A DNA stretch of 64,000 bases from an alpha proteobacterium MED-G09 (GTDB taxonomy: Bacteria; Pseudomonadota; Alphaproteobacteria; MED-G09), in contig CAJIZT010000008.1 in assembly GCA_905182015.1 (NCBI GenBank), forward strand, positions 57,801 to 121,800, read 5' to 3'. The notes beneath the pieces are model-generated. The model was given only the letters and a program-made list of their open reading frames with translations. It was not told where the DNA came from and made no database searches. This document shows positions 25,217-57,109 of the stretch, in pieces. The number at the start of each line of letters is the position of its first letter. The first letter of the stretch is position 1. The position numbers and the translations under genes were made by a program.

Positions 25217-25762
25217 TTAATCTCTTTCATATGCGGGGTCAGAGTGTCCGCCACGGCCTGGGGCTGGTCCAGGGCCTTCTCGCCAGCCTTTATCGGTGGC
25301 GGGCTCAAATCTTACCCAGTCATGCACACCTTGCCTTTTAATAATTCTCCATTCGCCGTTTCGTTTTTCAAGTTTATCAATATACCTTCCTGAAACAAAA
25401 ACATCCTCATCAATCTCTGGATTATGATCAGCTACAAAACCTCCCGCATCTTTAAAATCCTTTCCTTTGGCTATCCGATGGTAAGCTTGCCAGTAAGATT
25501 CGGACCAAGCAATATTTCCCTCAACTTCAATAAGAATATTTCCTACAAGATGCTGTGTATGTTCCATTTTTGATAATATATCGAAAGCAAAATCACAGAA
25601 TTGAGCAGAAGGGCCTTTGTACTCTCCGTGATGGTGAATCGAATCTTCATGAAAAACTGATTCAAGAAGCTCTCGATCAAGTCTATCAATGGCCCTGCAG
25701 TATTTATAAACAACATCCATTACAGCTATTTTATCAGCCATTAATTCTAACGAATTACTCAT
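25217..25762 (-). CDS. SnoaL_4/NTF2-like protein, a putative beta-like partner of the adjacent Rieske oxygenase.
   Basis: IAVMDVVYKYCRAIDRLDRELLESVFHEDS...GRYIDKLEKRNGEWRIIKR is the SnoaL_4 signature. It has a Gly/Pro-rich tail and is paralogous to the 32753 and 49547 genes. Confidence 0.6.
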   Translation of the reverse strand: MSNSLELMADKIAVMDVVYKYCRAIDRLDRELLESVFHEDSIHHHGEYKGPSAQFCDFAFDILSKMEHTQHLVGNILIEVEGNIAWSESYWQAYHRIAKGKDFKDAGGFVADHNPEIDEDVFVSGRYIDKLEKRNGEWRIIKRQGVHDWVRFEPATDKGWREGPGPAPGRGGHSDPAYERD

Positions 25763-25795
25763 AGTAAACCCCCTTTATTTTATTAAGACCACTCC

Positions 25796-27145
25796 CTAAT
25801 TATTCTTGGAAAGATATTTATCAATATTTTCATGGAAATAACGAATTCTATTTTCTTGAGACGGCATATAATCACCAAGATATCCTCGAGAACTGAGGCC
25901 TTTTTGTTGGCTTGTCCATATTGCCACATCTTCACTTATGCCAGGTCCAACATCCACCTCTGAGTGATGACCTTCAAGATGAGGAACCTTAGTATTTATA
26001 TCTGTTTCCATACCAAGGCTTGGTGAGTGATACTTATCAACACCTTTAGGAAATAAAGTTAGATACCAATAATCAAAATAGCACTTGGTAGGGTCGGTAG
26101 GGTGAGGCGACGCCCTTAGCCACTGCATACCATCAGGTTTAACGCTGAAAGACATGTTTGGGAAAATCGTATAATGATAATGATCCGTTAACTGAGTGTC
26201 TTTAAACTTACTAAAGTCATAACCCTTTTCTTTATCTAATTTACGTTTTTGTTTTTGAAGGTCTCCTCTTATATCAAGGAGCTTTCCCTTATAGTCTTTG
26301 GGGTCCATATCCCAATATTCAATATGCGGGCCAATCATTTCTAAAATTTTTTCTTCTTCGCTATATACGCTCTCACTAGGAATGAAGCCAGGCATAAGCA
26401 TTCTAGAATGCATGCTCTCGTACATATCAAATTGACAGGATTGGTATTTTTCTTCGGCCACATATTTTAGATTTGGATGCACATAGGGCGTATGGTAAGA
26501 TTCATTAAAGTTATCCTGAACACATTTCCAATTCCAATCCCCTTCAATTGTTACCCAGTGAGTTCGTATCATGTCAGAGATTGGATACGCCTCCAAATGC
26601 TCCATTATAGGGTTAAGATACTCTTTAAGTGGCTTACAATCAGGGTCTAAGTTAAAAAAGATAAAACCCGCCCAGACTGTAGATTTTATTTCAACAAGAT
26701 TCCTTCTTCCGCAAGGTGATCCCTGGAGAAAGTCTTCTTCGTCCGGAACCCATTTGAGTGTTCCGTCCAAACCAAACTTCCAGGCATGGTAGGCACAATC
26801 AAAACTCTCTAGATTTCCTTCCTTAACTTGGACAAGTTGATTCCCTCTATGCTGGCAAACATTATAAAAACACCTAATCTTTGAATCTTCACCTTTGGCG
26901 CATAAAATAGATTCTGAACCAAATTCAAATGTAAAAAAATCACCAGGGTTTGATAATTGCTGCTCAAGGCCGGCCACTTGCCAAACCTTAGTCCATAACT
27001 TATCCCATTCAAGCTTCATAAATTCTTTTGAAGTATATCGGTCTCCAAGGATAGGTTGGTTGCCAAGCTTGGGTTCAGGATCTTTACTCCAATCTTCGCT
27101 AAAAAATTTCTCTGCTAAAGGTTTTTTTTCTGCTTGTTTTACCAT
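25796..27145 (-). CDS. Rieske [2Fe-2S] non-heme-iron oxygenase alpha subunit (paralog A).
   Basis: Rieske motifs CFYNVCQHRGNQL...CAYHAWKF, and a mononuclear iron motif NFNESYHTPYVH (H-x4-H). The N-terminus is the canonical RYTSKEFMKLEWDKLWTKVWQ. Confidence 0.85.
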   Translation of the reverse strand: MVKQAEKKPLAEKFFSEDWSKDPEPKLGNQPILGDRYTSKEFMKLEWDKLWTKVWQVAGLEQQLSNPGDFFTFEFGSESILCAKGEDSKIRCFYNVCQHRGNQLVQVKEGNLESFDCAYHAWKFGLDGTLKWVPDEEDFLQGSPCGRRNLVEIKSTVWAGFIFFNLDPDCKPLKEYLNPIMEHLEAYPISDMIRTHWVTIEGDWNWKCVQDNFNESYHTPYVHPNLKYVAEEKYQSCQFDMYESMHSRMLMPGFIPSESVYSEEEKILEMIGPHIEYWDMDPKDYKGKLLDIRGDLQKQKRKLDKEKGYDFSKFKDTQLTDHYHYTIFPNMSFSVKPDGMQWLRASPHPTDPTKCYFDYWYLTLFPKGVDKYHSPSLGMETDINTKVPHLEGHHSEVDVGPGISEDVAIWTSQQKGLSSRGYLGDYMPSQENRIRYFHENIDKYLSKNN

Positions 27146-27266
27146 TTTCTCGCTCTATTTAAGTTACCGAATTCAACAATATATTAACATTAAAATTACA
27201 TATGATACAAATCAGCAAAAATATAACTAATAGTCAATAATTAATGAATGATGTAAGATTGTTGTA

Positions 27267-31269: not shown

Positions 31270-32703
31270 ATGGGAAAAATCGACATACATAGTCTAGCGA
31301 TTGATGGAAAAGATCAAAAAAATCTAAGAGGCGATCCGATAACAAATGATCGCTACTTTTCTAAAGATTTTATGACAAAAGAATGGGACAATATGTGGAC
31401 TAAGGTCTGGCTAATAGCTGGCAGAGAAGTTCAAATTAAAGAGCCCGGTGACTATATTGTTCATGACCTTATAACAGAATCTGTAATTATTGTTAGACAA
31501 GACGATGGATCAATAAAAGGCTTCTATAATAGCTGTGCCCACAGAGGTCAGAGACTTGTTAATTTTGATAGCTCACAAGATTCTTTTAGATGTCCCTATC
31601 ATGATTGGCAATTTGGATTAAACGGAGATGTAATTGGCTGCCCAGATCCCGATGACTTTCCTGAAGGAAGTCCAATCGGAAAAAGAAAATTAGTAGAGGT
31701 TCGGGTAGATAGCTGGGATGGTTTTATTTTTTATACTATGAGTGACGAGGCGCCTGAGCTTTTAGAGTATCTAGATCCTTTGCCTGAAATTTATAAAAAT
31801 CATAATTTTAAAGATCAGATTAGAGCTCAATGGGTAAGAGTAGAGCTAGATGTTAATTGGAAATATTTTTGTGATAATTTTAACGAGTCATACCACACAA
31901 GATTTGTGCACCCTCAAGTTCCTTCAGTAATAGATCAAGATCATTTTACTTCAAGATATGAAATGTTTCCTAAAGGTCATGCAAGAATTGTCCAAATGGG
32001 TCGGCCTTCTTTGCGTGATAGAATTCCTGAAGGTGAAGATCATCCCTTTAAAATGCTTCTGGAGGACTGGGGGATAGATATAACCAAATATCCTGATTAT
32101 GAAACACTTTCTGAGCAAGGGTGGGTAGACCTAAAGGAAGCCAAAAGAAAAAATTATAAAGAAAAAGGTTATCATCATTATGAAAATCTCTCAGATGAAG
32201 AGTTAACTGAAAGTCCTTTTCAATTTATTTTTCCAAATATTGCCATGGGTGTTCAAGCAGACGGCTGCATTCTTTTAAATTGGTTCCCTCATCCGACAGA
32301 TCCTGAAAAATGTTTTTTTGATCTTTGGGACATGGGTTATCCAATCGGTGGTGCAGCGAAAGGAATAGGTAAAACAGGTAGAGAGAACGATCAAGAATTT
32401 ACTTCAACATCAGCAGGTATAGGTAAAAAAGATAGTTACGTTGGGGAATTTGTTAGTCGTACTAAAGTAAATCCAGTTAAACTTCAAGAAGTTGAATTAG
32501 ATTTTCGTGATTATGATGGAGGGAAAGGTGTTGAAGATCTATGGGATCATGTTGTTTATCAAGACTGGCAGCTTACAGATGGTTTAAGGCGCGGCGTTAG
32601 ATCTAGAGGGTATCAAGAACCTTATCTTGCGTCTCAAGAGACAAGAGTAAGATTTTTTCATGAAAAACTTCATGATTATTTAAACGGAAAACCACCGAAA
32701 TAA
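31270..32703 (+). CDS. Rieske non-heme-iron oxygenase alpha subunit (paralog B).
   Basis: FYNSCAHRGQRL...CPYHDWQF, and NFNESYHTRFVH. Confidence 0.85.
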   Translation: MGKIDIHSLAIDGKDQKNLRGDPITNDRYFSKDFMTKEWDNMWTKVWLIAGREVQIKEPGDYIVHDLITESVIIVRQDDGSIKGFYNSCAHRGQRLVNFDSSQDSFRCPYHDWQFGLNGDVIGCPDPDDFPEGSPIGKRKLVEVRVDSWDGFIFYTMSDEAPELLEYLDPLPEIYKNHNFKDQIRAQWVRVELDVNWKYFCDNFNESYHTRFVHPQVPSVIDQDHFTSRYEMFPKGHARIVQMGRPSLRDRIPEGEDHPFKMLLEDWGIDITKYPDYETLSEQGWVDLKEAKRKNYKEKGYHHYENLSDEELTESPFQFIFPNIAMGVQADGCILLNWFPHPTDPEKCFFDLWDMGYPIGGAAKGIGKTGRENDQEFTSTSAGIGKKDSYVGEFVSRTKVNPVKLQEVELDFRDYDGGKGVEDLWDHVVYQDWQLTDGLRRGVRSRGYQEPYLASQETRVRFFHEKLHDYLNGKPPK

Positions 32704-32752: not shown

Positions 32753-33268
32753 ATGACTAAAATAGCAAATATAGATACATTATTAGCTGAGCAGGCAATA
32801 AGGCAAGCTGTAACAGCGTATTCCAGAGGATGTGACCGTTGTGATTTGGATATCTTTAAGTCCGCGTTTCATAATGACGCCGAAGTAAAATATGGAACTT
32901 ACGATGGCCATTATGAAAAATTTTGTGAAGATATTGTAGAAGGAAATTTAACTCTCCAAGATACCTCTCACACAATTATTAATGAGCATTATACTATTGA
33001 TACCGCCTCCAATAAAGCGTCGGGAGAAGTTTATGTTTTAGCATTTTGGGCTGTAGGCGGACATAACTATACATGCTCTGGGCGTTATATCGATAAGTAT
33101 GAATCCAGAAATGACGATTGGAGAATTACATTTCGTCAATACGTCTATGACTGGAGTAGGACTACAGAATATTGCGGAGATGATCCAAACAAGCTATTTG
33201 AGGGGTTAATCTACCGAGGCACACAAAACAAAAATGATCTTTCTTATAAAATATTAAATGAAAAATAA
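32753..33268 (+). CDS. SnoaL_4/NTF2-like protein (partner of paralog B).
   Basis: QAVTAYSRGCDRCDLDIFKSAFHNDA...GRYIDKYESRNDDWRITFRQ. Confidence 0.6.
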   Translation: MTKIANIDTLLAEQAIRQAVTAYSRGCDRCDLDIFKSAFHNDAEVKYGTYDGHYEKFCEDIVEGNLTLQDTSHTIINEHYTIDTASNKASGEVYVLAFWAVGGHNYTCSGRYIDKYESRNDDWRITFRQYVYDWSRTTEYCGDDPNKLFEGLIYRGTQNKNDLSYKILNEK

Positions 33269-34724: not shown

Positions 34725-37013
34725 ATGCTAGATATCAAAAATATTCTTTTAATTACTAGTGCAATTTTTTTAATTGCCCCAGTTAACACTTTATTCTCTC
34801 AAGAATCACCGATTGAAAACACTTATGGCTTAGAAGAAATAGTTGTTACAGCTCAAAAAAGAGAGGACTCTATTCAGACAGTCCCTATAGCTATAACAGC
34901 AGTCAGCGGAGATATTTTAGATCAACGAGCTGTTGTTAATCTTGAAAGCTTACAAGGTTTAGTCCCGGGTGCCCAGATTGGACAATTCGCAAATACTCCT
35001 CATGGCGCAGTATTTAATATTAGGGGTATGGGAGCTATTGAGCCAGATCCATATGCAGGTAGTGCTGTTTTGGTTACAATCGATGGTGTTCCGCAATATT
35101 TTAATATGACCTCATTAGTTGACCTATTTGACGTTGAACGTGTTGAGGTTTTAAGGGGACCACAAGGAACTCTATTTGGTGCTAATTCCACTGGAGGCGT
35201 TGTAAATATTATAACAAAAGCTCCTTCAGGTGAATATAATGGGAAGGTCCAAGTTACTGCTGGGGATTGGAACAGATTAGATGTCAAGGCTGCTGCAGAT
35301 TTACCAATAAACGAAAAATTATCTCTTAGGCTTTCAGGCTTTCATCACGGACGTGATGGATGGATTATAAATGCTTATGACGGTTCTGACATGGGAAGTG
35401 TTAATGTAAACTCTATCCGTGCAACTTTAAGATATGATGCAGGATCCGGTTTTGAAGCAACATGGCGTAATGAAATTTTAAGATCAAAAAATGGAGGCCC
35501 GTATATAGGTATGGGCGCTTATCCAGGTGAGGCAGAATATACGGCACCGGGAACGATAGGTGCGGGACAGCATGGCGGAGTACAGTATGCCAGTTATTGC
35601 ATGCCTGAAGGTACCCCTTGTAAAGCTCGTGATACATATTATTCTGCCAATAGCTCAGAAAAAGATATGTCAGATATGAATGTAGATTCCTCAACTCTAG
35701 AAATGGTCTGGAATGATACATCATTTGGAACAATCACCTCAATTACAAGTTATAAAAAGTTTGATCTTCATGAGTACACTGATCAAGATGGTACTGTTGT
35801 ATATCATTCTGGAACAGATCGTAGGACTGACGGCGACCAAATGACTCAAGAAATAAGAATTAATTCTGAAGTTTCAGATAACATAGATGTAGTTTACGGT
35901 TTATATCTTAGTGAAGACTCGTATTATCACACACAAAACTTTAATGCTCAATTCGCTTCCCCCGGCTTTAGTCAGCTATCGTCCCAAGATCAAGAAAGAA
36001 GCTCACAAGCATTATTTGCTCATAGCTTTATTGATTTATCAGACAAACTGAGACTCCAGGTTGGTGGTCGATATTCAAAAGAAGAAGCTGATATGAAAGT
36101 TGAAGTAGTAAATTTCATAAGCTTAGATGGTATATCAAGATACTTTGGGGACGATCGTCTGGCTGATTTTGGTATAGACTTTGGTGCATCAGGTAAGGAT
36201 GAGTGGACTGATTGGTCTGCAAAAGCTGGTCTTGACTACCAAATTTCAGAGAACACTTTGGCATACGGACATATATCACGTGGCTTTAAATCTGGAGGCT
36301 TCGTTGGAAGAATTACAGTTCCTGAAGATATTGGTCCATATGATCCAGAAATAGTTGAAACCATCGAAATTGGTGTAAAAAGTGATCTATTGGATAATAA
36401 ATTAAGATTGAATATAAATATTTTTAAAAATGACTATCAAGATCTTCAATTAGCATTAATTTATTTTACAAAAAATGCAGCGGGCTTTGATGTAAATGGT
36501 AATTCAATACTTAATGCTGCCGATGCAACTACTCAAGGTATTGAAGTAGAGTTTTTCGCTGCACCATCTGCTGCCCTTAGAGTTAATGGATCAGTAACTT
36601 ATCTTGACGCAGAGTATGATGATTTTCCATACTTAAATACTGATGGTTCTACCACCAACTTAAGGGGGTATAGATTACAAAATTCTCCAGAAATTACAGC
36701 CAGCTTTGGTTTTGATTATACTTGGAGAATGGGTGATGGAGATATGAGCTTATCTGCATTATATAAATATAATGATGAAAAGTTTAATACCAGTCTATTA
36801 AACACACCTCGATCAACTATTCAGGAAACAGACTTGGTTGATGCTAATCTTATGTGGAGTCCTGACAGTGATGACTGGTCAGTAAATTTTTGGGTTAAAA
36901 ATATTGCTGACGAAAGATATATTTCTAGTGTTTTTGAGGCACCTGGAGTTTTAGCAATCGTAAACTTTTTACCCCCAAGGGAGTTCGGAGTGTCTTTTGA
37001 TTTTAATTGGTAA
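34725..37013 (+). CDS. TonB-dependent outer-membrane receptor (TBDR-1).
   Basis: Signal peptide; plug domain with EEIVVTAQKRE and VLRGPQGTLFG; a long beta-barrel ending in an aromatic residue (FDFNW). Confidence 0.85.
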   Translation: MLDIKNILLITSAIFLIAPVNTLFSQESPIENTYGLEEIVVTAQKREDSIQTVPIAITAVSGDILDQRAVVNLESLQGLVPGAQIGQFANTPHGAVFNIRGMGAIEPDPYAGSAVLVTIDGVPQYFNMTSLVDLFDVERVEVLRGPQGTLFGANSTGGVVNIITKAPSGEYNGKVQVTAGDWNRLDVKAAADLPINEKLSLRLSGFHHGRDGWIINAYDGSDMGSVNVNSIRATLRYDAGSGFEATWRNEILRSKNGGPYIGMGAYPGEAEYTAPGTIGAGQHGGVQYASYCMPEGTPCKARDTYYSANSSEKDMSDMNVDSSTLEMVWNDTSFGTITSITSYKKFDLHEYTDQDGTVVYHSGTDRRTDGDQMTQEIRINSEVSDNIDVVYGLYLSEDSYYHTQNFNAQFASPGFSQLSSQDQERSSQALFAHSFIDLSDKLRLQVGGRYSKEEADMKVEVVNFISLDGISRYFGDDRLADFGIDFGASGKDEWTDWSAKAGLDYQISENTLAYGHISRGFKSGGFVGRITVPEDIGPYDPEIVETIEIGVKSDLLDNKLRLNINIFKNDYQDLQLALIYFTKNAAGFDVNGNSILNAADATTQGIEVEFFAAPSAALRVNGSVTYLDAEYDDFPYLNTDGSTTNLRGYRLQNSPEITASFGFDYTWRMGDGDMSLSALYKYNDEKFNTSLLNTPRSTIQETDLVDANLMWSPDSDDWSVNFWVKNIADERYISSVFEAPGVLAIVNFLPPREFGVSFDFNW

Positions 37014-37525: not shown

Positions 37526-37547
37526 TATTATTCTCCTTCCTTTATTG

Positions 37548-38558: not shown

Positions 38559-38563
38559 ATGAG

Positions 38564-39799: not shown

Positions 39800-39803
39800 A
39801 GAA

Positions 39804-48190: not shown

Positions 48191-49543
48191 ATGAATATTA
48201 CAGATATTGATTGGAAAAAAAGAAACGCCGAAAACTGGAAGCAGCAAAACCTTAGCAATACTCTTGTGGATGGAAGCCGTTACAATTCTCAGGAATTTAT
48301 GAATAAGGAATGGCAGTATATGTGGCCGAAAGTTTGGCTATTGCTTGGACGAGAGGAAGAGGTACCCAATCCAGGTGATTATCAAATGGAAGAATTTGGA
48401 AAAGAAAGCTTCTTGATGATACGACAAGACGACGGTTCCATAAAATCATTTTACAATGTTTGTCAGCATAGAGGTGCAAGACTGACGTTTAATGACCAGG
48501 GAACTGCCGAAACATTCAAATGTCCTTATCACGGTTGGAAATGGAGAAAGGATGGAAAACTTATCGAAGCTCAAGATGCTGAGGATTTTCCTCAAGGAAA
48601 TCCTTGCGATAATTTAACTCTAGAGGAAGTAAAAACAGAAACATTTGCAGGTTTTATTTGGATTAATATGGATAAGAATGCCTGTACATTAAAAGAATGG
48701 CTCGGACCTGTATGGGAGGACTGGGAGGCTTATGAAATTCATAAGTGGAAAAGATATGTAGCGCAAACAGTAAATATGCCATGTAATTGGAAGATCGTAT
48801 TAGATAATTTTAATGAATCTTATCACCTAAACACCGTTCATGCGCCAGAAAAAGCAGTAACAAAAAAGAGAATGCCTAGTGGCGTTGATACAAGTTACCG
48901 TAATACACAATTTGATCTAGCAACTGAAGGTCATAATAGGATGATTATGAAGGCCGGTTATGGACCAGCTGGATCATTTGAAGATGGAGGAATAATTGAG
49001 GATCCACTTGCATCTGTAATGAAAGACTGGGGCCTTAATCCAGAAAAATATTCAGGAAAAGGTTTTGATACTAGGGAGGCAATTCAAACTGCTAAAAGAA
49101 AATTAGGCCCGGAAAGAGGTTACACACATTATAAAAATTTACGTGATGAACAACTCACTGATGCATTTCATTATACTCTATTTCCAAATTTTGCTGTTTC
49201 ATTGTGGGCGGATGGATTTCATTTTTTAAGGGCAAGGCCGCATGCAACAGACCCTGAAAAATGTATCTTTGATAACTGGTGGTATTCAAGTAATCCAGAA
49301 AATGAAACATCACCTATTCGAAGTACTGTTGGAGTTCACGAAAGAGGAAAATTTGCTGATTTTCCTGATGCCTTTGAACACGGAGAAAAAAGTCTTGGTC
49401 AAACAATTGATCAGGATGCAGTTGTCTTTATTTTCCAAAAATTTGGTTTAAGGTCTAGGGGTTTCAATGGTGCATATTTCGCTGGCCAAGAAAAAAGAGT
49501 GCATCGTTTTCATCAGATGATTGAATCATATTTTGAGGAATAA
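48191..49543 (+). CDS. Rieske non-heme-iron oxygenase alpha subunit (paralog C). The tracked ORF starts at 48086, inside the crotonase gene; the ATG at 48191 has an AAGGA ribosome-binding site.
   Basis: FYNVCQHRGARL...CPYHGWKW and NFNESYHLNTVH. Confidence 0.85.
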   Translation: MNITDIDWKKRNAENWKQQNLSNTLVDGSRYNSQEFMNKEWQYMWPKVWLLLGREEEVPNPGDYQMEEFGKESFLMIRQDDGSIKSFYNVCQHRGARLTFNDQGTAETFKCPYHGWKWRKDGKLIEAQDAEDFPQGNPCDNLTLEEVKTETFAGFIWINMDKNACTLKEWLGPVWEDWEAYEIHKWKRYVAQTVNMPCNWKIVLDNFNESYHLNTVHAPEKAVTKKRMPSGVDTSYRNTQFDLATEGHNRMIMKAGYGPAGSFEDGGIIEDPLASVMKDWGLNPEKYSGKGFDTREAIQTAKRKLGPERGYTHYKNLRDEQLTDAFHYTLFPNFAVSLWADGFHFLRARPHATDPEKCIFDNWWYSSNPENETSPIRSTVGVHERGKFADFPDAFEHGEKSLGQTIDQDAVVFIFQKFGLRSRGFNGAYFAGQEKRVHRFHQMIESYFEE

Positions 49544-49546: not shown

Positions 49547-50065
49547 ATGAATGATAAAAAATTAGAACGTCATATAGCTAAATCAGAAATTTATGAATTA
49601 GTTTGTATGTATATGAGGGGTCTTGATCGTCTTGATGGGCCGCTTTTAAAATCAGTTTTTCATGAAGATGCTTATTGTGACTACGGATTCGTTAAAACTG
49701 ATCCTGATACATTTTCTAAATTTTGTATGGATGCACTTAAAGAACATATTGCAAATCACCATATGATTGGAAATTCATTAATTGAATTTGATGAAAGTGA
49801 GGATATGGCATTTGGAGAAATCTACTTTAATGCCTATCACAAAACTATAGTTGAAGGAGTTAATACTGATGTAATTATAGCAGGTAGGTATCTTGATCGT
49901 TATGAAAGAAGAAATGGAATATGGAAAATCGCGTATAGATCAGAAGTTAATGACTGGTCAAAAACTGAACCTACAAACGATCCCTACTTCAATGATTCTG
50001 ATTGTCACAGGGGTGGTCGTCAAGATGATCCTGTATATAAAAGAAATAAGATGTATCGGCCTTAA
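49547..50065 (+). CDS. SnoaL_4/NTF2-like protein (partner of paralog C).
   Basis: YELVCMYMRGLDRLDGPLLKSVFHEDA...GRYLDRYERRNGIWKIAYR. Its tail HRGGRQDDPVYKR resembles that of the 25217 gene. Confidence 0.6.
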   Translation: MNDKKLERHIAKSEIYELVCMYMRGLDRLDGPLLKSVFHEDAYCDYGFVKTDPDTFSKFCMDALKEHIANHHMIGNSLIEFDESEDMAFGEIYFNAYHKTIVEGVNTDVIIAGRYLDRYERRNGIWKIAYRSEVNDWSKTEPTNDPYFNDSDCHRGGRQDDPVYKRNKMYRP

Positions 50066-51402
50066 GTATTCATATTGTTTCTTAATTCCTCTCTAAGCTC
50101 TTCGTGTTTTTCTTTTGTTAGAGGGTACTTATAAAGAACTAAGATAGTTGAAATAAAAAATATTGTTGCACTAAAGGAGTACACAACCTTTAATCCAAAA
50201 ATATTATTACCTTCATTAATAACTCCAGGACTTGGATCAAATCCAATATAAGAAAGCATCATAAAGGCAAACCAAGGTCCAAATGAATAAGAAATTTTAG
50301 TAACAAAAGACCATACTGCAAAAAAGGAACCTGCCCTATCTTCATGTGAATATAATTTATCCAAATCAATTACATCGGCCTTCATGGATGGAGGAATAAC
50401 ATAACTTGTAGCACCACCAAAACCAGTGATTACTAAACCAAGCATCATCCAATAAATATCACCTGGGCCCAGCAACATATAAAATGGATTTGTAATAACG
50501 AAACATAGCAGACCAAAGATCCATGCTCGATGTTTTCCAATTTTTTTACTAATCGCAACCCAAAGCGGTATCGCGCAAAGATTGACTATATAATAGCACA
50601 AGAGAAGAGCTATCCCTGCTTTCTCTTCCTGAATTACACCCCTAATAAAAAAAATAAAAGTTGCGCTTGTTATTGAAACTCCTGTTGTGTGAAGAAAAAA
50701 TGCTAAAACTAACCTTTTGAAAGGACCATTTCTCCACATAATTTGAAGGCCTTCAAAAACAGATAGCTTAGGTGGCACATAATCCATTCGCTCCTCGACA
50801 TTGGAAACAGTAAGAAGAATTGTAATTGGTATAAGAATTAACATAGCAATACCAATCATCTGAACTACCTCTCTTGTTCCTCCGTAAGCAAAAAAGAATA
50901 AGGCGAGAGTTGGAATTAATTTACTCAAAACATTACCAACCATTCCTATCCATGTGCGCCATGCTGTTATGGTTGTTCTTTCGTTGTATTCAGGAGAAAG
51001 TTCTGCAGCCCAGGCATAATAGGGAATTAAGAGCATAGTCCAGCCCACCCAAAACATTGCTAGCCAAAATAATAAATACAGACCTGTCACTGTTTCTTCA
51101 TTTGGAAAAAATAAAAAATAAACTGCAGGCATTAAAATAGGTATTGAAGCAACCATCCAAACTCTGCGCCTTCCCCATCGTGTATTTGTCTTATCACCCA
51201 GATAGCCAATTAACGGATCAGTAAAAGCATCAAATATTCTTGCTATTAGCCATATCCAGCCTATAGCTGCCAAACTGATACCGACTTCAGATCCATAATA
51301 ATTAGGCAAGTATGTTAAGAGCGGAAGCCCTGCTATAGAAATTGGCATTTCTGAAAGACCATAAAAAAATAGTTTTCTTTTTTTTAATTTACTGTCTGTC
51401 AT
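50062..51402 (-). CDS. GPH-family (MelB-like, MFS_2) cation symporter.
   Basis: DPLIGYLGDKTNTRWGRRRVW is the GPH signature; 12 predicted TM segments. It is a tandem paralog of the upstream gene. Confidence 0.75.
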   Translation of the reverse strand: MTDSKLKKRKLFFYGLSEMPISIAGLPLLTYLPNYYGSEVGISLAAIGWIWLIARIFDAFTDPLIGYLGDKTNTRWGRRRVWMVASIPILMPAVYFLFFPNEETVTGLYLLFWLAMFWVGWTMLLIPYYAWAAELSPEYNERTTITAWRTWIGMVGNVLSKLIPTLALFFFAYGGTREVVQMIGIAMLILIPITILLTVSNVEERMDYVPPKLSVFEGLQIMWRNGPFKRLVLAFFLHTTGVSITSATFIFFIRGVIQEEKAGIALLLCYYIVNLCAIPLWVAISKKIGKHRAWIFGLLCFVITNPFYMLLGPGDIYWMMLGLVITGFGGATSYVIPPSMKADVIDLDKLYSHEDRAGSFFAVWSFVTKISYSFGPWFAFMMLSYIGFDPSPGVINEGNNIFGLKVVYSFSATIFFISTILVLYKYPLTKEKHEELREELRNNMNT

Positions 51403-51417
51403 AAGACCTCTTTTTAT

Positions 51418-52797
51418 TTAAATTAATCTTTCTTTTTTTTGGTTTTCTAACTTTTTTCTTATATCTAACTGAACATCCTCTGTGATCGGATATTTACGAA
51501 CGATCAATAATACTATTATAAAACAAACGGGGCATGCAAATGAGAAGAGTAGTTTAAGTCCTAAAATTTGATTAGAACTGTTAATAGCGCCAGGTGTTGA
51601 ATCAAAGCCAATCAAAGAAAGGATCATGAGCCCTAAAAAGGGTCCGAAAGATAAGGCTATTTTTGAAGCAAATGACCATACCGCAAAAAATTGTCCTGCC
51701 CTATCTTCTCCAGAATTTAAAGTATCTAAGTCTATAACATCGGCCTTCATAGAATTAGGCATTACATAAAAACTTGCTCCGGCAAAACCTGTTATTGTTG
51801 TAATGGGAAGCATCCAATAAAAATCCCCTTGTCCTAGAAGCATATAAAATGGGCTCATAATAATAAAAAAACTCAACCCCAACATCCAAGCACGGTGCTT
51901 ACCTGCTATACCAGAAAACCATGCCCAAAAAGGTATTCCACAAAGATTTGATACGTAGTAAAAAAGTAAAAATATAATCCCCGCCTCTTCTTCACCCGTT
52001 ACACCTCTTATATAAAATAAAACAACAGCCGTAGATAAAGCTGTTCCCATGCTGCTAAAGAAAAAAGCAAAAACTAGTCTTTTAAAAGGCCCATTTTTCC
52101 ACATAATTTTTAAGCCCTTTATGATAGGAATTTTTGTTGGAATATAGTCTCTTTTTTCAGGAACATTGAGTGTAGTTAGAGAAATCGTTACAGGAATAAG
52201 GAACAATAACCCCCACCCAATCATTTCTACTACCTCTTGTGTTCCTCCATAAGAAAAAAGTAATAATGCAACGACCGGGAGTACTTTTGTTGCAACATTA
52301 GCAACCATTCCAATAAACATACGCCAAGCAGCAATTGTTGTTCTTTCATTATACTCGGGGGATAATTCGGCCGCCCATGCATAGTAGGGAATAAAAAGCA
52401 TTGTCCAGCCTAGCCAAAATATTACAAGCCAAAACAGTAGGTAGTTTGCGTCTACACCGAGAGCTGGACTTGCGTCTACACCGAGAGCTGGAAGAAATAT
52501 CTTATAAACTGATATCATTAAAAAAGGTATTGAGGCTAACATCCATATACGTCTCCTACCCCAGCGAGTATCTGTCTTATCACCAAGATAGCCAATTAAA
52601 GGGTCTGTTATAGCATCAAACATTCGAGCGAACATCCAAACCGCCGCAATCGCTGCTAAACTCACACCTAGATCAGCTCCATAATAATTAGGTATATAGG
52701 CAGCCAAGGGAACATTGGCTACGGATAAAGGCATGTCCGAAAGACCAAAAAAAAATAAGATTCTCTTTGAGAGTGGTTTTTTAGACATATAGACCAA
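51418..52797 (-). CDS. GPH-family cation symporter (tandem paralog). The start is probably the ATG at 52788 (MSKKPL...).
   Basis: DPLIGYLGDKTDTRWGRRRIW, about 55% identical to the downstream copy by eye. It contains an in-frame 8-aa duplication (SPALGVDA twice). Confidence 0.75.
   Translation of the reverse strand: MVYMSKKPLSKRILFFFGLSDMPLSVANVPLAAYIPNYYGADLGVSLAAIAAVWMFARMFDAITDPLIGYLGDKTDTRWGRRRIWMLASIPFLMISVYKIFLPALGVDASPALGVDANYLLFWLVIFWLGWTMLFIPYYAWAAELSPEYNERTTIAAWRMFIGMVANVATKVLPVVALLLFSYGGTQEVVEMIGWGLLFLIPVTISLTTLNVPEKRDYIPTKIPIIKGLKIMWKNGPFKRLVFAFFFSSMGTALSTAVVLFYIRGVTGEEEAGIIFLLFYYVSNLCGIPFWAWFSGIAGKHRAWMLGLSFFIIMSPFYMLLGQGDFYWMLPITTITGFAGASFYVMPNSMKADVIDLDTLNSGEDRAGQFFAVWSFASKIALSFGPFLGLMILSLIGFDSTPGAINSSNQILGLKLLFSFACPVCFIIVLLIVRKYPITEDVQLDIRKKLENQKKERLI
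52446..52493. repeat. Perfect-frame tandem duplication of 2 x 24 bp (23 of 24 identical) inside the GPH transporter gene.
   Basis: TTGCGTCTACACCGAGAGCTGGAC followed directly by TTGCGTCTACACCGAGAGCTGGAA. Confidence 0.8.
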
Positions 52798-52957: not shown

Positions 52958-54343
52958 TTATTTCCCTGCACTCACCTTTGACCACAAAGAATCTTCACTC
53001 ATCCAGTTATCAACCCAATTATGGAAATGTTGTAACCTTCCTTCATCATTGCTTAAAACTGCCTTATTAAATCCACGAGAATGCATCCCTGCCTGCATAT
53101 CGTTCAAATAATGTATGTCTTGATCGATTGTGGCCGTCAAAGAATTTCTTCCCTCGACAACATCCTCTCGAGTAAAGACCTCATGTTCGACTCTCGAAGA
53201 AGAGTATTGGTACTCATATGAACCCGGGAGTAATTCCAAACCCTTATCTTTATCGCGGATCTTACTTTCTGGGATCATTAAGCTAAATTTAGTAAATATA
53301 CATTTATTGGGATCTGAAGGGTGAGGTCTTGGACCATAAAACCAAACCCTTTCTGCATGAATCGTCATAAAAAGGTTGGGAAAAATATCATACTGAAAGA
53401 CATCAGAAATCTGTTCATCTGTTAACTCAGAATAATCAAATCCAAGTTTTTTTCCAATTTTTCTTTTTTGTTTTTGAATTGCAGCCCTTATATCTGGGAC
53501 TTTACCAATATAATCATCGCTATTTATCTCTAAGCCCTTGAGGTATTGCGCCATATATTCGGGTGGTTCATCTGGCATTGGATATCTCGGATTCATAACT
53601 GGGCTCTCAACACATGTGTGTGTGTGACCAAACGGCCAAAGATAGTTTTGCGCATCACAACAATCGACAAAACTAGCATGTTGAGGATGTATAAAATCAA
53701 CGTGATATTGTTCCAAAAAATTATCCCTAACAGTTTTCCAATTAGCGCCTAAGGTAACGCTTTGGTGTTTGACCAATTCCATATTTTCAAAGTGATAAGG
53801 ATCAAGCTGATTCATGATTTCACCTAGAAAAGTTTTTAAAGGAGCAGGATTAGGACTCATATTTATAAAAACCATACCTGCCCAGGATTCAGCATGAACT
53901 GGCTTTAAAGAACTTTCCTTGCAAGAAACGCCTCCAGAAAATAGATCTTCGTCAGGAACCTTTTTTAATTCACCATCCAATCCATAGGTCCATCCATGAT
54001 AAGGGCATGTTACTTGCTTAACCCAGCCCAGATCTAAGGTTAGAATCTTATTTCCTCGGTGCTGACAAGCATTATAGAAGGCAGAAATATTATTATTTTC
54101 GTTGCGTGTGATAATTATGGATTCCCTTCCTACATCGTAAATGAAAAAGTCACCTGTTTCTTTTAAGTCGGATTCTAAGCCGGCAAAAATCCAACATTTA
54201 GTCCATATTTTTTCCCATTCCATTTTCATAAAATCAGGACACGTATATCTATCACTAGAAAGTGAGGCGTTATATTCTGGGTCAGCAGTAATATCTTCAG
54301 AAAAATTTATAGAATCAAAACGTTGTGGCAATATTTTCTCCAT
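52958..54343 (-). CDS. Rieske non-heme-iron oxygenase alpha subunit (paralog D; no NTF2 partner).
   Basis: FYNACQHRGNKIL...CPYHGWTY and NFLEQYHVDFIH. Confidence 0.85.
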   Translation of the reverse strand: MEKILPQRFDSINFSEDITADPEYNASLSSDRYTCPDFMKMEWEKIWTKCWIFAGLESDLKETGDFFIYDVGRESIIITRNENNNISAFYNACQHRGNKILTLDLGWVKQVTCPYHGWTYGLDGELKKVPDEDLFSGGVSCKESSLKPVHAESWAGMVFINMSPNPAPLKTFLGEIMNQLDPYHFENMELVKHQSVTLGANWKTVRDNFLEQYHVDFIHPQHASFVDCCDAQNYLWPFGHTHTCVESPVMNPRYPMPDEPPEYMAQYLKGLEINSDDYIGKVPDIRAAIQKQKRKIGKKLGFDYSELTDEQISDVFQYDIFPNLFMTIHAERVWFYGPRPHPSDPNKCIFTKFSLMIPESKIRDKDKGLELLPGSYEYQYSSSRVEHEVFTREDVVEGRNSLTATIDQDIHYLNDMQAGMHSRGFNKAVLSNDEGRLQHFHNWVDNWMSEDSLWSKVSAGK

Positions 54344-54509: not shown

Positions 54510-54809
54510 ATGATTGTGGTTAATGCAAGAGCAAGGGCAAGCACTGAATCTATTTTAGTATTAAAAAATGTTATTAATACTCTAGAGATAGAAACAAAGA
54601 AGGAAAAGGGATGCATTGATTATGCTTTCAGTGTTGATATCAATAACCCAAATATGCTTAGAATTTCTGAATTATGGGAAGATCTCAAATCATTACAGGA
54701 TCACCTTGAAACCAAACATGTAGAAGATTTTAGGGCGGCAATGGCTCAAAATCCAATAGATGTAGAGGCTCATTTTTATGAAGCCAAAGAAATTTCTTAT
54801 CCAGGATAG
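54510..54809 (+). CDS. ABM/Dabb domain protein (paralog of the 24854 gene).
   Basis: GCIDYAFSVD...LRISELWEDLKSLQDHLETKHVEDF parallels the 24854 protein. Confidence 0.5.
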   Translation: MIVVNARARASTESILVLKNVINTLEIETKKEKGCIDYAFSVDINNPNMLRISELWEDLKSLQDHLETKHVEDFRAAMAQNPIDVEAHFYEAKEISYPG

Positions 54810-54814
54810 ATTTT

Positions 54815-55687
54815 ATGAAAAATAAAATAAGTACCTGGCAGGTTGGTAAAGTTAAAGTCACAAGAATAATCGAAGGTGAAAGAGCTGGCCCTATGTTTGT
54901 TGTACCTGATGCTATTCCAGAAAATATTATAAAAATGCCATGGTTACAGCCATATTTTTCTGATAGCGAGGGCAACACAATTGTAAGTGTCCACGCCCTT
55001 ATCCTAGAAACACCAGATAAATGCATAATTGTCGATACGTGCTTAGGAAATGATAAAGAAAGACATATTCCATCATGGAACAAGTTACAAACAAGATTTC
55101 TAGAAGATCTAGAAATAGCAGGCTATCAAACTAAAGATATTGATACTGTGTTATGTACCCACCTTCATACTGATCATGTGGGCTGGAATACTGTTCTTGT
55201 AAATGATAAATGGGAACCAACATTTAAGCATGCTGATTATTTATTCGGAAAAGAAGAGTGGAATTATACAGAAAAACAACTAGGCAATCCTTTATATGCA
55301 GAATTCATAAATGACTCAATAATTCCTATAATTGACTCAGGTCTTGTTAGATTTGTGGAACTTGATGAAAGAATTTGTGAAGAAATAATATTGGAGCCTA
55401 CACTGGGGCACACCCCTGGACATGTGAGTATAAAAATAAATTCAGAAGGCCAACGAGCTGCTATAACAGGAGATTTCCTTCACCACCCCTGTCAGATGGA
55501 GAAACTTGACTGGATATCTTCTGCAGACTGGGATCCTGAGCTAGCAAAAGAAACTAGGAGGCGAAAGCTATCGGATTACGCCAATGAAAGGACTCTAGTT
55601 TTTGGAACGCACTTTGCTTCTCCGTCAGCTGGATATGTAATTAAAAAAGACGATCATTTTGTTTTTGAAGTGCAACATCCGCTATAA
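54815..55687 (+). CDS. MBL-fold metallo-hydrolase (lactonase-like).
   Basis: HxHxDH motif CTHLHTDHVGW, and downstream H and D ligands (GHTPGH, TGDFLHH). Confidence 0.75.
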   Translation: MKNKISTWQVGKVKVTRIIEGERAGPMFVVPDAIPENIIKMPWLQPYFSDSEGNTIVSVHALILETPDKCIIVDTCLGNDKERHIPSWNKLQTRFLEDLEIAGYQTKDIDTVLCTHLHTDHVGWNTVLVNDKWEPTFKHADYLFGKEEWNYTEKQLGNPLYAEFINDSIIPIIDSGLVRFVELDERICEEIILEPTLGHTPGHVSIKINSEGQRAAITGDFLHHPCQMEKLDWISSADWDPELAKETRRRKLSDYANERTLVFGTHFASPSAGYVIKKDDHFVFEVQHPL

Positions 55688-55723
55688 AAATAAACTAATA
55701 CTTAAAATTAAAGGAGTAAGCCA

Positions 55724-57109
55724 ATGAGTCTATCTGATAATATGAAGCCTGGAGAAGCCAGATGCCCCGGGCATCCAACTACTAAGGAATTAATAGGAAA
55801 TGATAGGGGCGGCGCACCAAAACCGTTGCTTGAAGATTCTTATGAGTTCCTAGGTGATGATGATATTCCGTATGAGAGATATACATCAGAAAAATTTGCA
55901 AAAGCAGAGGATGAGAGGCTCTGGTCAAGGGTTTGGCAATGGGCTTGCAGGGAGGAACACATTCCAGAACCAGGGGATTATTATGTATATGATATTGGCG
56001 ACCGATCAGTGTTAATTGTAAGAACAGAAGACAGTGAAATCAAAGCATACTATAATTCCTGCCTACATAGAGGCACCCAATTAAAGCCTGCAAATAGCTC
56101 TGGTTTTTGTAATGAGCTTAAATGTCCCTTTCATGGATGGACATGGTCCCTTAAAGGTAAATTAGAATCCTTGCCTTGTGATTGGGATTTTCCTCATGTA
56201 AAAAAAGAGGAATTTTCTCTTCCTGAAGTTAAGCATGCTGTTTGGGGTGGTTTCATTTTTATTAATTTTGATTCTGACGCAAAACCACTTGATGAATACT
56301 TGGGAGTCCTTCCGAATCATTTTAAAAATTGGAAATTAGAAGACCGCTACATTGAAACACATGTAGTAAAAAAACTTCCAGCAAACTGGAAGGTTTCCTC
56401 AGAAGCATTTTTAGAGGCCTACCATGTTTTGGAGACTCATTCTGAAGGCGTCTATACCGCTGGAGATGCAAATGCTGACTATGATATATTTGGCGATCAT
56501 ATTTCAAGATTTATCCATACTATCGGATATACCAGCCCTCACATAACTGAAAACCGTCCAAGTGAACAAGAAATACTTGATATGCTTCTGGGTAAAAGAA
56601 CAGACGAGGGGTCTGGCAGAGTTTTGCCAGAGGGGTCAACTGCCAGAGAGATTTATGCTGAGCATGTTCAGGGGGCAATGAAAGAAAAATATAAACAAGA
56701 TTTCTCTAACCTAACTGTAACCGAAACAATTGACTCAATAGAATACTTTACATTCCCGAATGCTTTCTTCTTTCCTGGTCTTCAACTGTCAATGGTTTAT
56801 AGGTTTAGACCAAACGGTGTCGATGGAGCTTTGTTCGATCTTCTTTTTTTAAGACCTAAGCCAATTGATGGACCATGTCCCCCACCACCAGAACCTTTTC
56901 ATCTGGAAGTAGACGATAGCTATACAAAATGCCCTGGAACAGAATTTTTAGGTGCTGTTTATGACCAAGATACAAATAACTTGCTATCACAAACGAAGGG
57001 ATTTAAATCAGGCTTTAAAAAGGGACAGTCACTTGGTAACTACCAAGAGGCTAGAACAAGGCATTTCCATCAAACTGTAGATAAATACTTGGAGGAAAAT
57101 AATGGGTAA
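55724..57109 (+). CDS. Rieske non-heme-iron oxygenase alpha subunit (paralog E).
   Basis: YYNSCLHRGTQL...CPFHGWTW and EAYHVLETH. Confidence 0.85.
   Translation: MSLSDNMKPGEARCPGHPTTKELIGNDRGGAPKPLLEDSYEFLGDDDIPYERYTSEKFAKAEDERLWSRVWQWACREEHIPEPGDYYVYDIGDRSVLIVRTEDSEIKAYYNSCLHRGTQLKPANSSGFCNELKCPFHGWTWSLKGKLESLPCDWDFPHVKKEEFSLPEVKHAVWGGFIFINFDSDAKPLDEYLGVLPNHFKNWKLEDRYIETHVVKKLPANWKVSSEAFLEAYHVLETHSEGVYTAGDANADYDIFGDHISRFIHTIGYTSPHITENRPSEQEILDMLLGKRTDEGSGRVLPEGSTAREIYAEHVQGAMKEKYKQDFSNLTVTETIDSIEYFTFPNAFFFPGLQLSMVYRFRPNGVDGALFDLLFLRPKPIDGPCPPPPEPFHLEVDDSYTKCPGTEFLGAVYDQDTNNLLSQTKGFKSGFKKGQSLGNYQEARTRHFHQTVDKYLEENNG

Follow-up and report, generated by a model that had tools for sequence, protein, structure and literature searches.

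Rieske oxygenase alpha subunits linked to SnoaL_4-class NTF2 proteins in an uncultured marine alphaproteobacterium

A 64,000-nucleotide stretch of DNA (the window) from an uncultured marine alphaproteobacterium of the PS1/OCS116 clade encodes five Rieske oxygenase alpha subunits, three of them with a gene for a small protein where a beta subunit would be expected. What is this small protein, and what might it do beside an oxygenase? All eight open reading frames were present at the coordinates given for them. The alpha genes are A1 (25796..27145, reverse strand, 449 aa), A2 (31270..32703, forward, 477 aa; directly 3' of amtB, 29997-31208), A3 (48191..49543, forward, 450 aa), A4 (52958..54343, reverse, 461 aa) and A5 (55724..57109, forward, 461 aa), so that apart from A1, listed as 449 aa, lengths span 450-477 aa. 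The longest frame of A3 opens at a TTG (48086) and overlaps the upstream enoyl-CoA hydratase gene; in near-identical contigs the start is the ATG at 48191. All five proteins matched Pfam Rieske (E 1e-14 to 1e-17) and Ring_hydroxyl_A (E 1e-20 to 1e-30), and each carried the Rieske CxH...CxxH motif and the iron motif N/A-F-x-E-x-Y-H-x4-H (in A1, CQHRG...CAYH and NFNESYHTPYVH). With pairwise identities of 29-40%, they are the five paralogs of the original prediction.

The small genes are B1 (25217..25762, reverse strand, 181 aa), B2 (32753..33268, forward, 171 aa) and B3 (49547..50065, forward, 172 aa), situated 33, 49 and 3 nt 3' of A1, A2 and A3, respectively, within the 50 nt that had been predicted. 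Each is preceded by a Shine-Dalgarno sequence, and the products are 33-37% identical to one another. They had been described as SnoaL_4 proteins rather than Ring_hydroxyl_B members, and profile searches bore this out. SnoaL_4 scores were 65.5 (B1), 65.6 (B2) and 79.2 bits against a Pfam cut-off of 24. With Ring_hydroxyl_B only B1 registered, at 16.9 bits (cut-off 27), and B2 gave no match. The E. coli HcaF protein, a real beta subunit used as control, showed the reverse (Ring_hydroxyl_B, 171.8 bits; SnoaL_4, 17.3 bits). An ordinary alpha3beta3 ring-hydroxylating dioxygenase with bona fide Ring_hydroxyl_B beta subunits would account for how the genes are ordered in the window and for the sub-threshold match of B1, but is highly improbable given the HcaF result, scores below both Pfam and NCBIfam thresholds (B1 reached 17 bits with AndAd, whose cut-off is 230) and fold neighbours that are eliminases. 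Pfam, NCBIfam and the HcaF control refute bona fide Ring_hydroxyl_B membership of B1-B3 at the family level.

The B-family profile matched Rv3472 (E 1e-8), LinA (5e-7), 3ef8 (5e-7; a putative scytalone dehydratase) and BaiE (2e-5), and the only real beta subunit that it reached was TphA3 (E 0.14). By predicted fold as well as sequence profile, the small proteins were nearest to LinA, BaiE and scytalone dehydratase, and no verified beta subunit was found among their top structural matches. B1-B3 are thus SnoaL_4-class NTF2 proteins of the LinA/BaiE/scytalone dehydratase type, not classical beta subunits. They differ from these eliminases in that identities are only 20-24%, and they carry ~35 conserved residues at the C terminus (RGGRxDDxVY), a tail that LinA and BaiE lack. 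To our knowledge, systematic linkage to a Rieske alpha gene has not been reported for LinA, BaiE or scytalone dehydratase. LinA is a hexachlorocyclohexane (HCH) dehydrochlorinase, and BaiE and Hsh2 are bile-acid 7alpha-dehydratases. BaiE is a proven dehydratase within SnoaL_4 (PMC10382948), and its aerobic homolog Hsh2, also a dehydratase, has been described as NTF2-like (PMC12175502).

Tyr22, Asp27 and His72 were invariant in 41 small-protein sequences, B1 and B2 (31-37% identity) included. They align with Y30/D35/H83 of BaiE and K20/D25/H73 of LinA, and R131 aligns with LinA R129; the corresponding residues in B1 are Y21/D26/H71/R143. The invariant charged or polar residues are Y22, R24, D27, R28, H72, E91, R114, D117, R131 and D136. 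Such residues would be unusual in a passive hydrophobic pocket and the best fold neighbours are enzymes, which makes it unlikely that the small proteins are non-catalytic carriers that bind ligands, supplying the oxygenase with a hydrophobic substrate or sequestering a reactive product. Since the small proteins group by fold and profile with eliminases and not with beta subunits, a structural role is no more likely than a catalytic one. The Asp/His/Arg/Trp pattern, however, is not diagnostic, a point against an enzymatic reading: HcaF, a true beta subunit, keeps counterparts of H72, N76, D117, W126, R131 and D136 and, in a manual alignment, of D27.

Some of this resemblance points to another possibility, that the SnoaL_4 proteins serve as beta subunits of a non-canonical kind, derived from a sister lineage of the NTF2 clan. 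A trimer would then sit on the alpha3 ring and, like Ring_hydroxyl_B proteins, stabilize the oxygenase or give it its shape, with A4 and A5 borrowing B3 or acting without a partner. We consider this the main rival, possible though somewhat doubtful. The proteins share the NTF2 fold, their genes come 3-49 nt behind the alpha genes in the window, the C-terminal motif G-R-x-x-D...W...R...D is common to them and HcaF, and the Pfam cross-matches between SnoaL_4 and Ring_hydroxyl_B are reciprocal if weak (B1, HcaF). In addition, the structure 3eby, whose deposition title reads 'beta subunit of a putative aromatic-ring-hydroxylating dioxygenase', matches SnoaL_4, Ring_hydroxyl_B and the B profile. 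Against it, the Ring_hydroxyl_B threshold was missed and hhalign gave a probability of 1.7% between the small-protein family and HcaF.

Gene order in other genomes bears on both readings. The linkage of alpha and SnoaL_4 genes is genuine, conserved across phyla and recurrent in many marine bacteria, occurring in PS1, Halieaceae, other Pseudomonadales, Myxococcota and on sphingomonad megaplasmids. We counted 80 loci, at species level, that contain a relative of B3. An alpha gene adjoins one or more SnoaL_4 genes in ~53, as it does for B2-like and 138-aa types, and in six gammaproteobacterial loci (L051, L059, L065, L072, L076 and L085) the co-directional pair is separated by -16 to +6 nt. Among metagenome contigs of the PS1 clade whose sequence extends upstream of B1, 42 of 44 keep A1 followed by B1; L121 and L123 contain a B1-like gene without A1 or any alpha. 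These tight co-directional gaps, the 3 nt between A3 and B3 among them, and the retention of the A1-B1 pair are how subunits of one enzyme behave; they favour a beta subunit and count against a separate enzyme, as does the number of SnoaL_4 genes in Halieaceae, which roughly follows that of alpha genes. On the other hand, the adjacent same-strand order was found in only 12 of the 80 loci. Divergent transcription was the commonest arrangement (40 loci, 28 of which have a further SnoaL_4 gene between the two), and we know of no alpha/beta oxygenase pair that is divergently transcribed. In nine loci the alpha was on the same strand but more than 1 kb away, and in 17 a full alpha was absent from the contig DNA examined. 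The 'beta-subunit position' originally noted therefore holds in the window but is not conserved in the family.

The placement of B3 itself varies. Its ortholog lies directly 3' of A3 in the window and in L008-L013, at the end of an operon behind A4 and an MFS_2 gene in the PS1 genomes L015 and L018, and straight after an SDR gene in the PS1 genomes L138 and L140. In gammaproteobacteria and Myxococcota it adjoins an A5-like alpha, whose orientation varies, and an A4-like alpha is often found alongside. In ~50 non-PS1 loci the gene immediately beside the B3 ortholog codes for an A5-like alpha (44-57% identity), and Halieaceae-type loci have A4-like alphas (52-58% identity) next to the SnoaL_4 genes and the A5-like alpha. 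The statement that two alphas lack a partner is accordingly correct for adjacency in the window, where neither A4 nor A5 has a neighbouring SnoaL_4 gene, but misleading beyond it. That a B3 ortholog adjoins three different alpha paralogs or none, depending on the genome, and that two of the window's five alphas, like the A3 ortholog of L015 and L018, lack an adjacent partner, argues against a dedicated beta subunit; such variable placement is typical of pathway enzymes. NTF2 genes also outnumber alphas in several clusters, with tandem SnoaL_4 pairs in 28 loci and, in Croceicoccus, one alpha ringed by three NTF2 genes. A single chain with two SnoaL_4 domains, encoded on plasmid pNL2, would not fit a three-fold beta ring.

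The alpha subunits form a distinct, uncharacterized clade with a PF00848 catalytic domain, a CntA-like iron site and a bridging glutamate. Their nearest predicted-fold match among solved structures is CntA, an alpha3 enzyme without a beta subunit, which by analogy would favour a separate enzyme over a beta subunit. They are also close to NagG and TphA2, and this nearness, together with their length, fits the beta-subunit alternative. As in the alpha3beta3 dioxygenases (HcaEFCD, naphthalene, biphenyl, NagGH and terephthalate systems), a Rieske and PF00848 alpha of ~450 aa is encoded beside a small NTF2-fold protein. In contrast to those systems, the small protein is SnoaL_4 instead of Ring_hydroxyl_B and its gene is often divergent from or apart from the alpha gene, the alphas have the bridging Glu and an N-F-x-E-x-Y-H motif shorter by one residue, and the cluster lacks the set of cis-dihydrodiol dehydrogenase, extradiol dioxygenase and reductase. 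The suggestion of methylated-amine substrates has a basis in sequence: with the Group V enzymes of quaternary amines (CntA, GbcA/BmoA, Stc2, choline monooxygenase, OxyBAC) the alphas share the gapless N-[Y/F]-x-E-x-Y-H-x4-H motif with its bridging glutamate and an aromatic residue at the position of CntA Y203 (Phe, as reported for OxyBAC), and GbcA was the best, partial, NCBIfam match. Nevertheless, they scored 106-150 bits on GbcA (cut-off 670), align only over the N-terminal 190-225 residues, are 30-100 aa longer and have an NTF2 partner, and the SDR/enoyl-CoA hydratase/P450/TonB-receptor setting is not amine-like except for amtB before A2.

Concerning electron supply, a six-frame motif scan of the window found Rieske motifs only in A1-A5, and motifs of the plant, adrenodoxin and rubredoxin types in no credible ORF. 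Pfam searches, which covered all window ORFs of 100 aa or more, revealed no FNR-, GbcB- or HcaD-type reductase. The sole other Fe-S protein (2350-4140, reverse strand; Pyr_redox_2, Fer4_20 and two 4Fe-4S motifs) adjoins a POR-type oxidoreductase. The absence of a usual redox partner had been predicted correctly; as to the donor, orthologous clusters use a Rieske-type ferredoxin, not the CntB/GbcB-type reductase of Group V. The ferredoxin gene lies 3' of the A5-like alpha in 26 of ~50 non-PS1 loci, Halieaceae included. A Rieske ferredoxin is the donor most commonly in alpha3beta3 systems, and this coupling counts for a beta subunit and against a separate enzyme.

Taking these points together, we tentatively regard an oxygenase accompanied by a partner NTF2 enzyme that acts on the oxygenated product as the best reading. 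The region would consist of several catabolic modules, each centred on one Rieske non-haem-iron alpha. The alpha would oxygenate a substrate to a product that is probably alicyclic or dearomatized, and the neighbouring small protein may then carry out an acid-base step at its Tyr-Asp-His(-Arg) site, such as water elimination, isomerization or ring opening. The scheme is modelled on mupirocin and thiomarinol biosynthesis (MupW/MupZ, TmlW/TmlZ), where a small NTF2-fold enzyme acts on the product of a Rieske oxygenase by acid-base catalysis (PMC8827043). MupZ itself is of the Lsd19/XimE-like epoxide-hydrolase branch and serves polyketide biosynthesis, whereas the proteins here are of the SnoaL_4 LinA/BaiE type in catabolic-looking clusters. 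All five oxygenases and the two P450s might share one electron supply, a Rieske-type ferredoxin and a reductase, the genes of which would lie elsewhere.

The neighbouring genes, assigned by Pfam, would suit such modules. SDRs, enoyl-CoA hydratase, amidohydrolases, ABM proteins and hydrolases may process the products further, and TonB-dependent receptors and MFS transporters may import substrates. The remainder of the A1 operon (22545..25204, reverse strand) encodes ABM (24854-25204), Amidohydro_2 (23853-24827) and Amidohydro_1 (22545-23837) proteins, a trio found behind the A3 ortholog, not A1, in L015 and L018. Convergent with A2-B2 is a cytochrome P450 gene (33273..34532, reverse), and the triad of alpha, SnoaL_4 and P450 was seen again in L143-L145; in a gammaproteobacterium, the genes of a B2 relative (58% identical) and of a 450-aa alpha are transcribed divergently, and a P450 gene lies beside them. 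A first TonB-dependent receptor (34725..37013, forward; Plug and TonB_dep_Rec_b-barrel) is followed by a reverse-strand block of P450 (39804-41051), NmrA-like (41076-42005) and FAD_binding_2 oxidoreductase (41977-43623) genes, syntenic with A1-B1 or A3 modules in PS1 contigs, and by a second receptor (43726-46116, reverse). TonB receptors likewise flank the related clusters L001, L051, L083, L088 and L089. Upstream in the A3 operon are SDR (46574-47362) and enoyl-CoA hydratase (47374-48165) genes on the forward strand, an order kept in near-identical contigs and L008-L013. Two MFS_2 (GPH-type) transporters (50062..52797, reverse) come next, then, beyond A4, an ABM-domain protein (54510-54809) and a metallo-beta-lactamase-fold (MBL-fold) protein (54815-55687), both forward. 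Two SDRs, a dienelactone hydrolase, an MBL-fold protein and an MFS transporter lie 3' of A5 (57102..61410, forward).

A similar cluster is present on pNL2 of Novosphingobium aromaticivorans (SARO_RS18525-18585), a megaplasmid of a soil/subsurface sphingomonad. No published function for it was found in the literature searched. It contains a TonB receptor, a P450, SDRs, an FAD oxidoreductase and three alphas, whose identities to A1, A3 and A5 are 38-46%. A 172-aa SnoaL_4 protein (39% identical to B3) is encoded directly 3' of an alpha, and there are further NTF2 proteins, one of which is the JCSG structure 3b8l; the JCSG structures grouped with this comparison are 3b8l, 3eby, 3ef8 and 2rfr.

All eight open reading frames named in the original prediction were present in the window. 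Five encode large proteins, A1 to A5 (25796..27145(-), 31270..32703(+), 48191..49543(+), 52958..54343(-) and 55724..57109(+)), and three encode small proteins of 171-181 aa, B1 to B3 (25217..25762(-), 32753..33268(+) and 49547..50065(+)), which follow A1, A2 and A3, respectively. The GC content of the window is approximately 36%, and housekeeping genes (rnpA-yidC, dnaX-recR, def-fmt-truA and rplU-obg) frame it. The five large proteins scored far above the Pfam thresholds as Rieske (PF00355) and Ring_hydroxyl_A (PF00848) proteins, and with a Rieske CxH-x(15-19)-CxxH motif and the 2-His iron motif they are oxygenase α subunits, as had been proposed. Pairwise identity is 29-40% among the α proteins and 33-37% among the small proteins.

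Rieske oxygenases are classed as α3 or α3β3 enzymes. B1, B2 and B3 had been described as SnoaL_4 proteins rather than classical β subunits, and both statements stood. With the SnoaL_4 profile (PF13577) they scored 65.5, 65.6 and 79.2 bits, respectively, against a Pfam gathering threshold of 24 bits, and their relatives likewise belong to PF13577. With the Ring_hydroxyl_B profile (PF00866, gathering threshold 27 bits), B1 reached 16.9 bits and B2 and B3 gave no match. The control, the E. coli β subunit HcaF, scored 171.8 bits with Ring_hydroxyl_B and 17.3 bits with SnoaL_4. The NCBIfam model of the AndAd small subunit gave 17 bits with B1, the cut-off being 230. We consider it very improbable that the genes represent an ordinary Ring_hydroxyl_B system.

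The predicted fold of the small proteins is the NTF2 α+β cone, as expected of SnoaL_4, and in the fold comparison known β subunits were not their closest structures. A profile search with the B family reached Rv3472 (E 1e-8), LinA (5e-7), the putative scytalone dehydratase 3ef8 (5e-7), BaiE (2e-5) and 3eby (9e-4), and the sole proven β subunit reached was TphA3, with an E value of 0.14. Aligned with HcaF by hhalign, the family matched over 64 C-terminal columns at 1.7% probability. Residues Y22, R24, D27, R28, H72, E91, Y93, R114, Y115, D117, W126, R131 and D136 (B3 family positions) are invariant in 41 B-family sequences including B1 and B2. Y22, D27 and H72 align with Y30, D35 and H83 of BaiE and with K20, D25 and H73 of LinA, and R131 aligns with R129 of LinA; in these two enzymes the catalytic residues are the Asp-His pair, together with the Tyr in BaiE and the Arg in LinA. 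The crystal structure of Rv3472 is that of a D26N mutant, altered at the aspartate equivalent to D27. Conservation of Asp-His-Arg was considered as a means to discriminate an enzyme from a β subunit and was rejected as decisive evidence, as HcaF, a real and non-catalytic β subunit, retains most of these residues when aligned with hhalign and MAFFT (equivalents of H72, N76, D117, W126, R131 and D136, and of D27 by manual alignment). Since the residues are common to the whole branch of the NTF2 clan, they cannot prove catalysis by the small proteins. A passive, ligand-binding role of the small proteins seems to us quite unlikely. A C-terminal tail of about 35 residues (RGGRxDDxVY) is conserved in the B family and absent in LinA, BaiE and HcaF.

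The linkage between the two kinds of gene was surveyed in 80 species-level loci with a B3 relative, scanned by HMMs built on the window proteins. An α gene directly precedes the SnoaL_4 gene on the same strand at 12 of the 80 loci, with gaps of -16 to +32 nt, and is divergent from the B3 relative at 40. A second, remoter SnoaL_4 gene lies between the divergent pair in 28 of these 40, and the pair is directly adjacent in 12, separated by 180-290 bp. At nine loci the α gene shares the strand but lies at a distance of over 1 kb, and at two it is convergent; a full α gene was absent from the available DNA at 17, several of which are cut by contig ends. The α/SnoaL_4 gene link is real.

The original prediction had also placed the small proteins in the position of a β subunit. 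This holds in the window, where the gaps are 33 nt (A1-B1), 49 nt (A2-B2) and 3 nt (A3-B3) and each small gene is preceded by its own Shine-Dalgarno sequence, and it holds for A1-B1 across the PS1 clade, the order being retained in 42 of 44 informative metagenome contigs. It does not hold for the relatives of B3, with the 12 loci so ordered set against 40 divergent ones and with a neighbouring α paralogue that varies. The tight coupling in all co-directional α/SnoaL_4 pairs, the strict A1-B1 pairing and the roughly matching numbers of α and SnoaL_4 genes in Halieaceae speak for a non-canonical, β-like subunit, an explanation that we regard as possible but somewhat doubtful. The two contigs departing from the A1-B1 order, L121 (4797-7187) and L123 (6001-6531), carry B1-like proteins (73-74%) without an α within the available flanks, and in L121 the gene is directly upstream of genes for a KstD-like FAD_binding_2 protein and an SDR.

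The neighbour of B3 is A3 in the window and in loci L008-L013. In two further PS1 loci, L015 and L018, no α gene lies directly beside B3, the operon being A4-MFS-B3, and in L138 and L140 the neighbour is an SDR gene. At nearly all gammaproteobacterial and myxococcal loci it is an A5-like α (44-57%), frequently accompanied by an A4-like α (52-58%). A4 and A5, which had been described as lacking a partner, thus stand alone in the window, but these orphans adjoin B3 orthologues in other lineages. The 46.5-61.4 kb stretch behaves as a single shuffled supercluster. Modules are also shuffled within the PS1 clade: a trio of ABM, Amidohydro_2 and Amidohydro_1 genes follows A1-B1 in the window (22545-25204) and comes immediately after the A3 orthologue in L015 (6619-9236) and L018 (6583-9205), with identities of 63-81%. 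A B2 relative from a gammaproteobacterium (58%) is divergent from the gene of a 450-aa α with a P450 gene alongside, matching the A2-B2-P450 triad of the window. Halieaceae orthologues of A3 (57-58%) have a different SnoaL_4 gene, encoding 137-138 aa, divergently upstream, and in one genome such a pair survives amid IS elements. Similarly composed clusters, each with a TonB receptor, a P450, SDRs, several αs, several NTF2 proteins and an FAD oxidoreductase, are present on plasmid pNL2 of N. aromaticivorans and on a Croceicoccus plasmid. The pNL2 cluster (L088), with three α genes, P450, SDRs and a TonB receptor, encodes a 358-aa chain with two SnoaL_4 domains (2248-3324 (+)) and a 144-aa NTF2 protein whose structure was deposited as PDB 3b8l under the title 'putative aromatic ring hydroxylase'.

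Concerning the α proteins, none of the five reached a curated NCBIfam model. Their best partial match was GbcA (106-150 bits, cut-off 670), which spanned the N-terminal half only (model positions 22-226 of 420). The best PDB matches by phmmer were CntA, phthalate 3,4-dioxygenase and HcaE, with alignments limited to α residues of about 20-220 (31-218 for CntA). The iron motif aligns with that of CntA without a gap (NWKIVLDNFNESYHLNTVH versus NWKVIVDNYMECYHCGPAH), whereas alignment with phthalate 3,4-dioxygenase requires a gap of one residue and shows Asp in the bridging position. When A3 is aligned with Y203/E205/H208/H213 of CntA, Glu is found at the bridging E205 and Phe at Y203, and F-x-E-x-Y-H is present in all five αs. 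In the CntA paper (PMC7948474), a bridging glutamate and, two positions ahead of it, an aromatic residue or Asn count as marks of group V, whose members are α3 enzymes receiving electrons from an FMN/[2Fe-2S] reductase. Group V enzymes (CntA, GbcA, Stc2) are two-component systems with an adjacent CntB or GbcB reductase and no small subunit; in contrast, the window αs have a SnoaL_4 partner and no reductase in the window, and a Rieske ferredoxin follows the A5-like α in related loci. The α clade stands between the CntA-type and the aromatic dioxygenases. The structural match to CntA covers 317 of the 450 residues of A3. Residues ~210-290 of A3 (window ~48818-49060), after the iron motif, have a pLDDT of 47-70 in the A3 model, and this stretch is perhaps an insertion when compared with CntA and a potential lid.

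The absence of a ferredoxin or reductase from the window, as first noted, was borne out. In a six-frame motif scan of the window, Rieske motifs were confined to the five αs, and the only other ferredoxin-type motifs in a credible ORF were the 4Fe-4S domains of the 2350-4140(-) protein. Pfam scans of every window ORF of at least 100 aa revealed no FNR-, GbcB- or HcaD-type reductase. Halieaceae-type clusters encode a Rieske ferredoxin of ~105 aa, 33-45% identical to HcaC, the Rieske-type ferredoxin of E. coli, directly downstream of the A5-like α (L022-L078, ~3500-3950 (-); L001, 7602-7928 (-)). This order was found in 26 species-level loci as well as in L001 and L002; an HcaD-like reductase was not found in any examined locus. 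Given this ferredoxin, the oxygenases of the α clade are probably three-component systems. In the PS1 clade the ferredoxin and reductase would be encoded elsewhere and serve all five oxygenases. Sphingomonads, in which one ferredoxin and reductase are common to many oxygenases, offer a precedent. The two P450s of the window are likewise without redox partners in the window. The size of the αs and the Rieske ferredoxin are further points in favour of a β-like SnoaL_4 protein. A cytochrome c gene (27267-28199 (-); 310 aa, CTACH), probably CycM-like, immediately precedes A1 in the same orientation, an order retained wherever PS1-clade contigs extend upstream of A1. We rejected its product as the electron donor of the oxygenase, since the protein, anchored in the membrane at its N terminus and carrying a class I cytochrome c domain, is probably periplasmic. 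The sole non-Rieske Fe-S proteins of the window are a neighbouring pair (521-4140 (-)), a POR-type 2-oxoacid:ferredoxin oxidoreductase (644 aa) and a 596-aa Pyr_redox_2 and Fer4_20 protein with two 4Fe-4S motifs, which are unexpected in an aerobic surface-ocean alphaproteobacterium.

Taking into account the family and fold of the small proteins, their flexible gene placement, the CntA-like α, and the fact that NTF2 genes of related clusters can be surplus, tandem or fused, we tentatively favour the possibility that the SnoaL_4 protein is a partner enzyme acting on the oxygenase product, where it would catalyse an elimination, isomerisation or ring opening. MupZ, which works after the Rieske oxygenase MupW (PMC8827043), provides a model. 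An overlap between such a partner enzyme and a β-like subunit can also be conceived, although it is unlikely: a trimer resembling LinA and BaiE would sit on the α3 ring as a β-like cap with its Tyr-Asp-His site still working. If so, the complex would be a bifunctional oxygenase-eliminase with product channelling, and an extant intermediate linking NTF2 enzymes to the inert β subunits that classical ring-hydroxylating dioxygenases possess. To our knowledge, the origin of β subunits from NTF2 enzymes has been assumed and not documented, and the genes may inform it. Whether the small partner is catalytic or represents a novel type of β subunit, an α clade systematically linked to a small dehydratase-resembling protein would extend the known architectures of Rieske oxygenases. 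All the components come from families already known, and there is one precedent for a cascade of a Rieske oxygenase and an NTF2 protein. We found no description of the α/SnoaL_4 pairing in the literature searched, including searches for SnoaL, NTF2-like with Rieske, pNL2 and PS1/OCS116, and the structural-genomics PDB entries 3b8l (from the pNL2 cluster) and 3eby, which are from the same strain, have putative titles only.

The closest genomes, in which B3 is 80-88% identical, were obtained from single cells or assembled from metagenomes and belong to the PS1 clade/OCS116 cluster (Alphaproteobacteria); near-identical contigs are repeatedly present in marine metagenomes. Many relatives of B3 with 50-65% identity occur in Halieaceae (among them Halioglobus, Haliea and Luminiphilus), in other Pseudomonadales and in some Myxococcota; remoter ones (31-46%) are encoded by megaplasmids in Novosphingobium, Sphingobium, Croceicoccus and rhizobia. 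The genes are frequent in bacteria that abound in the ocean, namely members of the PS1/OCS116 clade, the Halieaceae and a gammaproteobacterium whose B2-like protein has index entries in 298 blocks of the contig collection. Source databases label the B3 relatives as hypothetical or as 'nuclear transport factor 2 family protein', an annotation that conceals the link to a Rieske α.

In terms of substrate, the neighbouring genes encode TonB receptors, GPH-type MFS transporters, P450s, SDRs, ECH, a KstD-like FAD_binding_2 protein, amidohydrolases, ABM proteins, MBL-fold proteins and a dienelactone hydrolase, and this neighbourhood suggests that the substrate may be a bulky compound, alicyclic or aromatic. 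An amine substrate is possible for some paralogues, because of the CntA-like motif and an amtB gene ahead of A2. Steroid or bile-salt catabolism can be taken as a lead only, suggested by the KstD-like FAD_binding_2 protein, SDRs, ECH, BaiE/Hsh2-like NTF2 proteins and ABM proteins; the Rieske enzymes in the Chol11 papers are KshA-type and not of the α clade of the window. Marine clusters of the α/SnoaL_4 type include TonB-dependent receptors and P450s, and they probably mark an uncharacterised breakdown route for complex dissolved organic matter. Between the two TonB receptors of the window, genes running in one direction (37118-41051 (-)) encode a protein with a GFA domain, another of 336 aa that contains two CxxCH motifs, a β-helix protein of the NosD type and the second P450. 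A fourth NTF2-fold protein of the window, from a family other than SnoaL_4, is the limonene-epoxide-hydrolase/SnoaL_2-type protein encoded at 4287-4667 (-), beside an acyl-CoA synthetase.
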